A DNA stretch of 64,000 nucleotides from Octopus vulgaris (lineage: Eukaryota): positions 9,300,001 to 9,364,000 of the forward strand of contig OX597843.1 of assembly GCA_951406725.2 (NCBI GenBank). The letters run 5' to 3'. This document shows, piece after piece, positions 25,890 to 35,054 of this stretch; position 1 is the stretch's first letter; each line of letters begins with the position of its first letter. Under the pieces are notes generated by a model. It saw only the letters and a list, made by a program, of their open reading frames with translations, was not told the DNA's origin and searched no databases. The position numbers and the translations under genes are program-made.

Positions 25890-26060
25890 CTCTTTATCTT
25901 TGGCGGCCAGTTCCACCTCCAGTCGGGACTGTTTCAATACATCCACAGCCTGTTCCATGTCTGTAGCTTTCTCCATTTCTTCCACTTGATGTAAGTTCTG
26001 AGTCGCCGATGCTAGCTGCTGCCGAAGCTGTTCAACCTCACGTTCAGACGATTCTGTACG
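25890..26060 (-). CDS. cux1: cux exon ([40 protein letters not shown])
   Basis: Aligns to CUX1 [40 protein letters not shown]; 171 nt, phase 0/0. Confidence 0.95.
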
Positions 26061-28532: not shown

Positions 28533-29799
28533 GCCCTGATGCAGTACATAGCCCTGATGCAGTACCAGGCAGTGGCTATCATGGCTTCTGATCTTAACTG
28601 ATTGGAAGTGTTATCATGTACATTGTTTGGTCTTGGTATAAAAGATGGTCTACAGCAAATATTCTGCTCAATACCACAGATTTGCTAATGCCCTGATGCA
28701 GTACCAGGCAGTGGCTATCATGGCTTCTGATCTTAACTGATTGGAAGTGTTATCATGTACATTGTTTGGTCTTGGTATAAAAGATGGTCTACAGCAAATA
28801 TTCTGCTCAATACCACAGATTTGCTAATGCCCTGATGCAGTACCAGGCAGTGGCTCTCATGGCTTCTGATCTTAACTGATTGGAAGTGTTATCATGTACA
28901 TTGTTTGGTCTTGGTATAAAAGATGGTCTACAGCAAATATTCTGCTCAATACCACAGATTTGCTAATGCCCTGATGCAGTACCAGGCAGTGGCTCTCATG
29001 GCTTCTGATCTTAACTGATTGGAAGTGTTATCATGTACATTGTTTGGTCTTGGTATAAAAGATGGTCTACAGCAAATATTCTGCTCAATACCACAGATTT
29101 GCTAATGCCCTGATGCAGTACCAGGCAGTGGCTCTCATGGCTTCTGATCTTAACAGATTGGAAGTGTTATCATGTACATTGTTTGGTCTTGGTATAAAAG
29201 ATGGGCTACAGTAAATATTCTGCTCAATACCACAGATTTGCTAATACCCTGATGCAGTACCAGGCAGTGGCTCTCATGGCTTCTGATCTTAACTGATTGG
29301 AAGTGTTATCATGTACATTGTTTTGTCTTGGTATAAAAGATGGCCTAAAGCAAATATTCTGCTCAATACCAAAGATTTGCTTGTCAGTTGTTTGACCATA
29401 ACCAGTTGAGCATGTCCCTTAGTAGCTGACGATATGTGCATCTCTGATCATGAGCAGAAGTAGTGGGGGAGCATCATAGCCATGTGTTGAGAGGGATTCT
29501 TTGGGGTTTGAACAATTCACCTCTGGAAACATGGGTGGTTCTTTCAACATTCTTAAACAACCATTATTCAGGGACCTTTTGAGCGGGATGGGCTACTCAA
29601 CCTGAAGAAAATTCTAACTGGGCTCCACCTGCAAGGTCATGTGCTGTTTATCTTGATATGAGATCACCATGTTGCGCACATATGGTTGTGATGCATGTGC
29701 CTGGTGTACCCTTATCAGACGGGTAGTCATGATGGGTATATTGGGCTTCGTATATTTTACCCCAGTGTCACTTTGATGGCATGAACTGCTCTCTCACTC
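28533..29799 (+). mobile_element. TAA-flanked ~555-bp element with its first 139 bp in 6 tandem copies
   Basis: GCCCTGATGCAGTACCAGG recurs every 139 bp from 28551; the remainder matches the 6318-6873 copy. Confidence 0.85.
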
Positions 29800-33386: not shown

Positions 33387-34632
33387 CTTGGAATCTCAAA
33401 CAATCACCTGTGTGCCAACCCATCCAAGTTAATTTGTATTTTAAAACAAAGAAATGAATTTTTTTTTAATCTAAAGTACCCCCAAAATAGCCGCTGGTTA
33501 CCTCTGACCTGGCGCCAATGCTTCACAGAGACCAGTTGAAGTGGATAACCTACATTAAAACAACAGCAACAACACTATCTAACACACATCTAGACAACAG
33601 GGGAGCTTCTACATGGTTCTCCAAAATGCTAGAAATAGCAGCTATGTGACCAGAACTGAAGCATTTTTTTCACTAACAGAAGGACGTGTTGGACAACATC
33701 ATTTTACAATGTACTCAGTTGACATTAGTTGGACTAGGATCATCACCCTGGATTGTTGCTCCACCGAGTTGATCTAAGTCCTGCCGTGTGGCATCTTGGG
33801 GAATTCTCTTCTATTGTAGCTTCAGGTTGACCAAAGCCTTGTGAGTGGATTCGGTAGACGGAAACTGAAAGAGGCCCCTTGCAATTTTCTGCTTCGGGAC
33901 CCCATCCCTTCAATCAAAATTCATATTCTAGGCACCCTTTATTCCTAGCTGTATTTTACTCTATTCTATCTGAAGTTCAATATTTCTCATTATCCTACTC
34001 TCTCTTTTTTTACTCTTTCTAGTTGTTTCAGTCATTTTGACTGCGGCCATGCTGGAGCACCGCCTTTAGTCGAGCAACTCGACCCCGGGACTTATTCTTT
34101 GTAAGCCCAGTACTTATTCTATCGGTATCTTACGCCGAACCGCTAATTGATGAGGACATAAACACACCAGCATCGGTTGTCAAGCAATGCTAGCGGGACA
34201 AACACAGACACACAAACACACACACATATATATATACACATATATACGAAGGGCTTCTTTCAGTTTCCGTCTACCAAATCCACTCACAAGGCTTTGGTCG
34301 GCCCGAGGCTACAGCAGAAGACACTTGCCCAAGGTGCCACGCAGTGGGACTGAACCCGGAACCATGTGGTTGGTAAGCAAGCTACTTACCACACAGCCAC
34401 TCTGGCGCCTATGAAGTACAAGTTAAGAATTTATTTAGGTCTATTACAAACAGTTTTATTCTTGTTCAACATCTTAACCAAAGTAAATCGATGACTCATC
34501 GACGTACTTTGACCTTAACATGGGGACCCTCAACTGCGGAGGCCCCCTGTGATCGCAGGGGTTGAAGGGGCTTAGCAACGGGCCCTGCCTGTCACATATA
34601 TAAATATATATATAATATATATTTAATATATA

Positions 34633-34686
34633 TTCTGCTGAGGATCATACGACGTAAGTTGAATGTGAAATCACGGTGATACAGAA
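34633..34686 (+). ncRNA. Type-I hammerhead ribozyme with intact catalytic core
   Basis: TTCTG-CTGAGGA-[stem II with GTAA tetraloop]-GAA-ATCAC-G-GTGAT-A-CAGAA. Confidence 0.72.
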
Positions 34687-34812
34687 CTAAATTCATTTTT
34701 TAAATGTCTTGCTTTGAAAAACTGCATTTAGGTATGATTAGTATAATTTTGGTAGTAATGACTTTGTCCCTCTTAGTGTGAGGCATTTATGTGTAATAAT
34801 GCCCTCTATACA

Positions 34813-34881
<69 letters not shown>

Positions 34882-35054
34882 TATATATATATATAAATAT
34901 ATATATAAATATATATAATATATCTATCTATCTATCTATCTAGAATGGAAGAAAGCGCTAATGATCTAAGTGATATGATATATATACAAAAAATGTAATA
35001 TACAAATAAATATCTGTAAATATAAACCATCCGATCTTCTGATTACCTCATTTC

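Follow-up and report, generated by a model that had tools for sequence, protein, structure and literature searches.

The closest described systems are the non-LTR retrozymes of metazoans, in which each unit of a low-GC, non-coding and highly self-paired tandem repeat carries a type I hammerhead ribozyme (PMC7229834; 10.64898/2026.07.22.740005). They occur as dimers to multimers and also as monomers, with Penelope-like elements (PLEs) alongside. The definition of a retrozyme is that of Cervera and de la Pena 2020 (PMC7229834), where circles in mussel, RNAs of 170-400 nt and PLEs as candidate mobilizers are described. Li et al. 2026 (10.64898/2026.07.22.740005) give vertebrate retrozymes a PLE origin, with consensus lengths of 51-972 bp, and report in vitro cleavage for one of nine Xenopus retrozyme dimers. 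In the accessible parts of both sources, the mobilization of animal retrozymes by PLEs is a proposal, not a demonstration. The accessible part of PMC7229834 mentions neither octopus nor cephalopods, and a literature search by title and start of abstract, with subscription papers, Repbase/Dfam and preprint supplements outside its scope, returned no cephalopod retrozyme.

PLEs themselves leave tandem and inverted 5'-truncated copies with a bias for microsatellites and a tail of 30-40 bp at one end; how such tails and arms arise is described as an open question (PMC8557442). Their hammerheads have a palindromic helix III and a low activity (PMC4209133). For the Poseidon element PAc of Anolis, two internal starts of reverse transcription are described, both strands are cut and extended, the enzyme is predicted to be a dimer, and the ribozyme is unnecessary for insertion in vitro (PMC11167929).

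The window analysed here, i.e., the whole stretch of 64,000 nt of Octopus vulgaris DNA, contains one hammerhead motif between two TA-rich tracts (Table 1). This motif belongs to a copy, truncated in 5', of a young 481-bp repeat that does not code for protein, a non-LTR retrozyme set in (TA)n and likely pasted there by a borrowed Penelope-like GIY-YIG/RT protein. The feature is real, and the family is one of non-LTR retrozymes with PLE-type insertion, a kind already known.

Table 1. Position of the hammerhead, the repeat copy and the surrounding features in the window.
Feature	Positions	Strand	Remarks
Type I hammerhead ribozyme motif	34633..34686	+	predicted cut after 34681
CUGANGA core	34638..34644	+	N7 is G in the window copy; G, C or T across the family
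Stem II with U-U base, internal loop and GNRA loop	34645..34666	+	family loop GUAA or GCAA
Palindromic stem III, ATCAC-N-GTGAT	34670..34680	+	constant in the clan; centre varies, 1-2 nt
5'-truncated retrozyme-unit copy	34633..34817	+	unit bases 1 to ~185; "short" fixed 3' end
TA-rich target tract, 5' side	34587..34632		
(TA)n target tract, 3' side	34813..34939		
Conserved hairpin directly upstream of the short 3' end	34782..34803	+	candidate part of an RT-recognition domain (putative role)
Host gene frame with CUT domain (cux/cut-like)	15312..16100	-	PF02376, E 8e-26
Probable host coding exon, coiled coil, downstream of the intron	25890..26060	-	AG/GT boundaries
Probable host coding exon, upstream of the intron	49119..49186	-	AG/GT boundaries

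The hammerhead motif and its repeat family

The motif consists of a stem I of TTCTG/CAGAA, the core CUGAGGA, a stem II with a U-U first pair, an A-A mismatch and a GUAA loop, GAAA at 34667-34670, and an AUA cleavage triplet that ends at 34681. A CUGANGA, GAAA and NUH core with three stems is that of a type I hammerhead. An earlier note on this DNA had read the stems, core, GAAA and AUA at 34633-34686 in the same way, and the letters bear this out. A descriptor scan of both strands found no other type I hammerhead in the window; after local shuffling (100 windows), it gave 0.02 loose matches and no strict match per window. The window copy lacks 2 bp of stem I as well as its distal extension, and a C-G pair of its stem II is private to it (A18C relative to the family).

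The Rfam hammerhead models, named in the earlier note as a check by covariance model, do not match the motif even at E ≤ 10. The hammerhead is also not the minimum free energy fold of the motif (z -0.46; ensemble probability 0.0002), and its stems are predicted with probabilities of at most 0.1 in the window context and at most 0.22 in the family context. The 1-nt loop that the note had given to stem III is impossible in a monomer: a single copy is predicted to form 4 bp closed by a CGG triloop (-0.2 kcal/mol), and two copies an intermolecular duplex (-13.9 kcal/mol). On these models, dimerization through the stem III duplex appears feasible and a monomeric hammerhead fold possible. PLE hammerheads that cleave as dimers have reportedly been found by Lunse et al.

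The motif is not the orphan ribozyme that it had been taken for: it marks the start of a copy, truncated in 5', of a repeat present hundreds of times. In the genome (2.8 Gb in 227 contigs), the 181 bases of the window copy have at least 46 matches at 99-100% identity, with 40 of 1,482 candidates scored. The full unit measures 481 bp and is found head to tail in arrays up to 7.5 units long. The window copy is 99% identical to it over q1-191, the exact end being blurred by TA. The island of ~180 bp described in the note does lie between TA tracts; its boundaries are those of unit bases 1 to ~185 of the repeat, and it is not free-standing.

An exact pattern retrieved 288 hammerheads of the 481-bp family and a control pattern none; a looser pattern retrieved a wider clan of 1,420 hammerheads, all with the same palindromic stem III. 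For the first 30 clan loci among those listed, homologous downstream sequence was recognized in all 30 by inspection and in 27 by BLAST. A sister unit of 497 bp is 65% identical to the 481-bp unit. As for the base of stem II, the U-U pair is shared with the axolotl HHR_Amex2 (PMC7229834), whereas EN+ PLEs usually have G10.1-C11.1; many clan members have G-C. Stem III, minimal in EN+ PLEs, is of 4 bp in the 481-bp unit (PMC4209133; PMC8557442).

With a GC content of 33%, the unit has no Met-started frame longer than 70 aa; folded as a circle, it reaches a z of -5.3 against 60 shuffles. Its length compares with 170-400 nt for retrozyme RNAs (PMC7229834) and with 51-972 bp for retrozyme consensus sequences (10.64898/2026.07.22.740005). 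One difference from the metazoan retrozymes is that, in the two young PLE families searched, no sequence link to a pLTR was found for the 481-bp unit.

Two main subfamilies are present. Across 128 aligned family segments, the core changes at the free N7 (41 segments) and otherwise only at G8, once, in a single array (two units); loop 2 of the common family variant remains GNRA. Units are nearly identical within an array, and the subfamily differs between arrays. Some arrays have variants in part of their units only, so a single 481-nt circle is insufficient to account for them without later changes. One array copy (L064:1-310, minus strand) has lost several segments, among them most of the ribozyme, by deletion or by replacement with short TA runs; it may be an assembly artefact or a repair scar.

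No RNA run was listed as containing the unit. Among sequencing contigs guessed to derive from RNA, two of 503 and 509 nt (X1 and X8, from two studies) span the whole unit with its end joined to its start and no letters between, a joint that tandem DNA gives identically and that therefore does not speak for RNA or circles. The run X5 holds only pieces of the unit, and the large run X15 holds 2,230 pieces, the RNA status of these contigs being a guess as well. Sequence related to the unit is also present in runs under four other organism labels.

Conserved RNA structure

In an alignment of 25 clan sequences, 19 of which were chosen by their core and stem III pattern, two-sided changes occur in five of seven pairs of stem I and in five of seven pairs of stem II. 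None of 500 shuffles, which ignore relatedness, reaches this score, and control pairings obtained by sliding fall to 30-42% paired. Stem III is invariant in the alignment and so uninformative on covariation. Sister copies found by their downstream sequence alone (nine, being those with a complete ribozyme region among 15 loci) keep stem III in all nine cases, and the core and GAAA in eight each. The covariation of the ribozyme stems across the clan indicates that the fold is kept under selection. Of the three stems, RNAalifold recovered only stem III from the clan alignment. A covariation scan over all pairs was set aside, its signal being drowned by the relatedness of the sequences.

A second structured region, unit bases 119-261 (columns 159-312 of alignment A3), contains highly conserved long-range helices around the 3' end called short below. 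The hairpin directly before this end has two-sided changes in two of five pairs, and 96% of its cells are paired. An H-type pseudoknot is possible in the same region: a CCTC/GAGG helix crosses AGYGTG/CACGCT, both being 95-98% paired. Neither candidate helix has a two-sided change; one pair is broken in three sequences, and another CCTC provides a nested alternative.

The earlier note's proposal of a small non-autonomous retroelement family with a ribozyme holds. Genomic copies, once gathered, are 481-bp units in head-to-tail arrangement, and stems I and II covary. Together with the number of hammerheads (288), the absence of a Met-started ORF above 70 aa and the Penelope-type ends described below, this makes up a non-autonomous, ribozyme-bearing retroelement family.

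Insertion anatomy and candidate enzymes

Seventy-one loci were examined: 31 merged top BLAST loci, and 40 from the first 100 pattern matches listed. The 3' ends of their arms fall at two sites ~130 bp apart, called short (unit base ~185; class 160-195) and long (unit base ~316; class 300-322). Of 109 fixed-site arm ends, 106 run into (TA)n, inside which target-site duplications are unreadable. Two arms are often joined head to head (41 junctions). In 38 of these, one arm is short and the other long; no junction joins two short or two long arms, and in the remaining three, one arm is aberrant or interrupted by a LINE. One-armed copies are divided equally between short (15) and long (15) ends. 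In the first 31 loci plus four, the two arms of one insertion share the subfamily or private variants where they overlap. Clan members end mostly at the homologous sites.

Arms longer than one unit are frequent (42 of 109), and the predicted cut site is crossed freely, which argues against cleaved linear monomers as the usual template. The 5' ends do not cluster at this site: five of 109 arms start within 5 nt of it, for 2.5 expected. Slightly more of them than expected (10 for 4.1) lie immediately upstream of stem I, an excess confounded by the choice of loci with an intact ribozyme. Nine of the 41 junctions are in phase to within 5 nt, for 0.9 expected (p 3e-7 against uniform), with arm-length offsets of -1, 0, +1 and +7 units.

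The 481-bp family thus shows the insertion mode of PLEs, as described for EN+ members (Neptune/Nematis): a microsatellite target, 5' truncation, partial tandems, an inverted 5'-truncated copy and a tail at one end, to which the hammerhead with palindromic stem III can be added (PMC8557442; PMC4209133). Among the differences are the absence of an ORF and the length of the tail, ~130 bp vs. 30-40 bp (PMC8557442). In the accessible parts of the metazoan retrozyme accounts, neither a pair of fixed 3' ends nor arms joined head to head are described (PMC7229834; 10.64898/2026.07.22.740005). Poseidon PAc, like the 481-bp family, has an AT-rich target and two internal RT starts that match the genomic ends; no difference in start site between its strands was seen, whereas in the 481-bp family each site is used once in 38 of 38 classifiable two-armed insertions (PMC11167929). 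This strict one-of-each pattern is likely a trace of the way in which a Penelope-type enzyme inserts such RNAs into DNA, and a PLE-type mobilization of the unit is very probable.

Tx1-like LINEs (APE, RT, zf-RVT) are inserted in the unit in the same orientation, at bases 416-441, in six loci (L061/L017/L062 (C3), L063+L079 (C2), L068, L081, L183 and L184); those duplications that are readable measure 4 to 19 bp. In a sample of 30 LINE 3' ends, four adjoin the unit, one of them being the query, and a pattern aimed at the 416-441 zone gave five LINE junctions.

Two young and abundant PLE families of the same genome have intact frames, of 781 aa and 775 aa. Both possess a CxxxxCxxC linker, which we take to be of the Neptune/Nematis type. 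The first, with RT and GIY-YIG domains in Pfam, also has (TA)n as its target, and its two ends lie 40 bp from each other; each end occurs once in L133, the sole two-armed locus with strands opposing at a known junction. The tails of these PLEs are of ~40 bp, against ~130 bp in the 481-bp unit. In several copies (L126:406-4087, L127, L128, L134 and L135), the 781-aa frame follows a second frame of 330-480 aa. The 3' region of this PLE contains repeated ATTGG/TGACGT motifs, and the descriptor found no hammerhead in the element. A hammerhead-like motif is present in the second PLE (775 aa), with U-U at the base of stem II and a palindromic stem III. In this pLTR hammerhead, CCGAAGA replaces CUGANGA in young copies, and an older one has CUGAAGA. 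About 138 of 141 scored matches of the second PLE (L129, L226-L255) are identical over the RT stretch.

No shared sequence is detectable between the unit and the two young PLEs, the local scores being 37 vs. 37.9±7.2 and 41 vs. 35.9±5.2. Furthermore, 30 GIY-YIG loci, 10 extended ones and 30 loci of the second PLE contain no unit sequence, save one insertion of a sister retrozyme; the underlying searches scored 150 of 6,136 and 141 of 12,331 candidates. The unit has no RT/GIY-YIG ORF inside, and none is continuous with it at the loci inspected. At 30 clan loci, three upstream PLE fragments in the same orientation look separate, with unrelated sequence between, and one more fragment lies downstream.

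Proposed mechanism and the copy in the window

According to the proposed mechanism, arrays would be transcribed, and the hammerhead, acting as a monomer or as a dimer via the palindromic stem III, would cut the multimers into 481-nt monomers, which would then be ligated into circles. A dimeric PLE protein would bind one RNA and nick both strands of a TA tract. Reverse transcription would start at unit base ~185 on one strand and at ~316 on the other, and the two cDNAs would stop at variable points, to be joined head to head unless one arm is lost. It is likely that one RNA, either circular or multimeric and uncut, serves the borrowed PLE enzyme for priming on both cut strands; between these two kinds of template, the balance is about even. 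The (TA)n target and the two ends of the first young PLE speak for a mobilization of this type. Weighing against the scheme are the poorly favoured hammerhead fold and its failure to match Rfam, the shorter tails of the young PLEs and their lack of detectable sequence in common with the unit, the single cleaving dimer out of nine in Xenopus (10.64898/2026.07.22.740005) and the dispensable ribozyme of PAc (PMC11167929).

The same PLE-type enzyme might copy an uncut linear multimer, with no part for circles and another role, or a vestigial one, for the ribozyme. Arms that read through the cut site fit such a transcript equally well, in-phase junctions would arise from two reverse transcriptases running off one 5' end, variants are mixed inside arrays, and PAc uses uncut RNA in vitro (PMC11167929). 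However, array units are nearly identical while the subfamily differs between arrays, the in-phase offsets (-1, 0, +1 and +7 units) would require that a long RNA be primed on more than one of its units, and the covarying stems speak for a fold under selection. A linear template of this kind is a serious possibility that falls short of even probability. The priming of one strand only appears improbable. In that case, the second arm would result from fold-back or a template switch onto the new cDNA, resolved at the other site by an endonuclease cut or TA microhomology. The nine near-perfect palindromes among the 41 junctions suit this scheme, as do the shorter arm, which mostly ends at the first opposite site, and the AT-rich nature of both fixed sites, with their short TA microhomology. 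Yet 32 of 41 junctions are more than 5 nt out of phase, both arms exceed one unit in several insertions, the longer arm may end at either site, and one-armed copies are evenly divided (15 vs. 15). Overall, this favours twin priming over fold-back.

Two further readings concern the nature of the unit. That it is the pseudo-LTR of a further autonomous PLE, the loci being ordinary 5'-truncated insertions of this element, is quite improbable: the geometry is indeed that of PLE insertions, and the PLE searches scored only 150 of 6,136 and 141 of 12,331 candidates, but in 71 family loci each head-to-tail unit runs straight into the next, no ORF intervening, and the three upstream PLE fragments of the 30 clan loci look like separate elements. 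A domesticated intronic ribozyme that regulates cux would agree with a site inside a probable cux intron. It can practically be dismissed, as the copy is antisense to the gene, truncated, inserted in a microsatellite and 99% identical to hundreds of dispersed copies.

Twin priming by a borrowed PLE enzyme can be given a more detailed form, tentative and on the unlikely side. A dimeric Penelope enzyme would grip one ribozyme-made RNA circle via the conserved RNA domain, possibly a pseudoknot that echoes telomerase RNA, and would make rolling-circle copies from both nicked strands, each active site with its own start. The enzyme would be recruited by RNA shape, without sequence common to the autonomous element. 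With its short non-coding template, two mapped start sites, one-of-each rule, and candidate enzymes that are intact in the same genome, the 481-bp family makes PLE mobilization and the origin of tails and inverted arms testable in a PAc-type in vitro assay; it is the one-of-each rule and the long tail that bring the open mechanism within reach.

The window copy is ordinary and matters little alone. It is a lone short-end arm with its 5' stop at the start of stem I, and probably a dead and inert passenger. Its position antisense within a cux intron is probable and looks incidental. This location, already claimed in the earlier note, is supported by the minus-strand CUT frame and the flanking exons; the exon at 49 kb is presumed to belong to cux. 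Neither Pfam nor the Atlas gave a name to the two exons, and the one at 25890..26060 has only generic coiled-coil look-alikes.

Just upstream of the 5' TA tract, outside the unit, lies a 70-bp GC-rich and self-complementary patch (34515-34585). The window also contains a frameshifted LINE-type RT element with several open frames (1317-5004, minus strand) and young minisatellites of 96-98% identity, at 13224-15021 (123 bp), 28551-29381 (139), 44303-46285 (94) and 52843-53660 (122).
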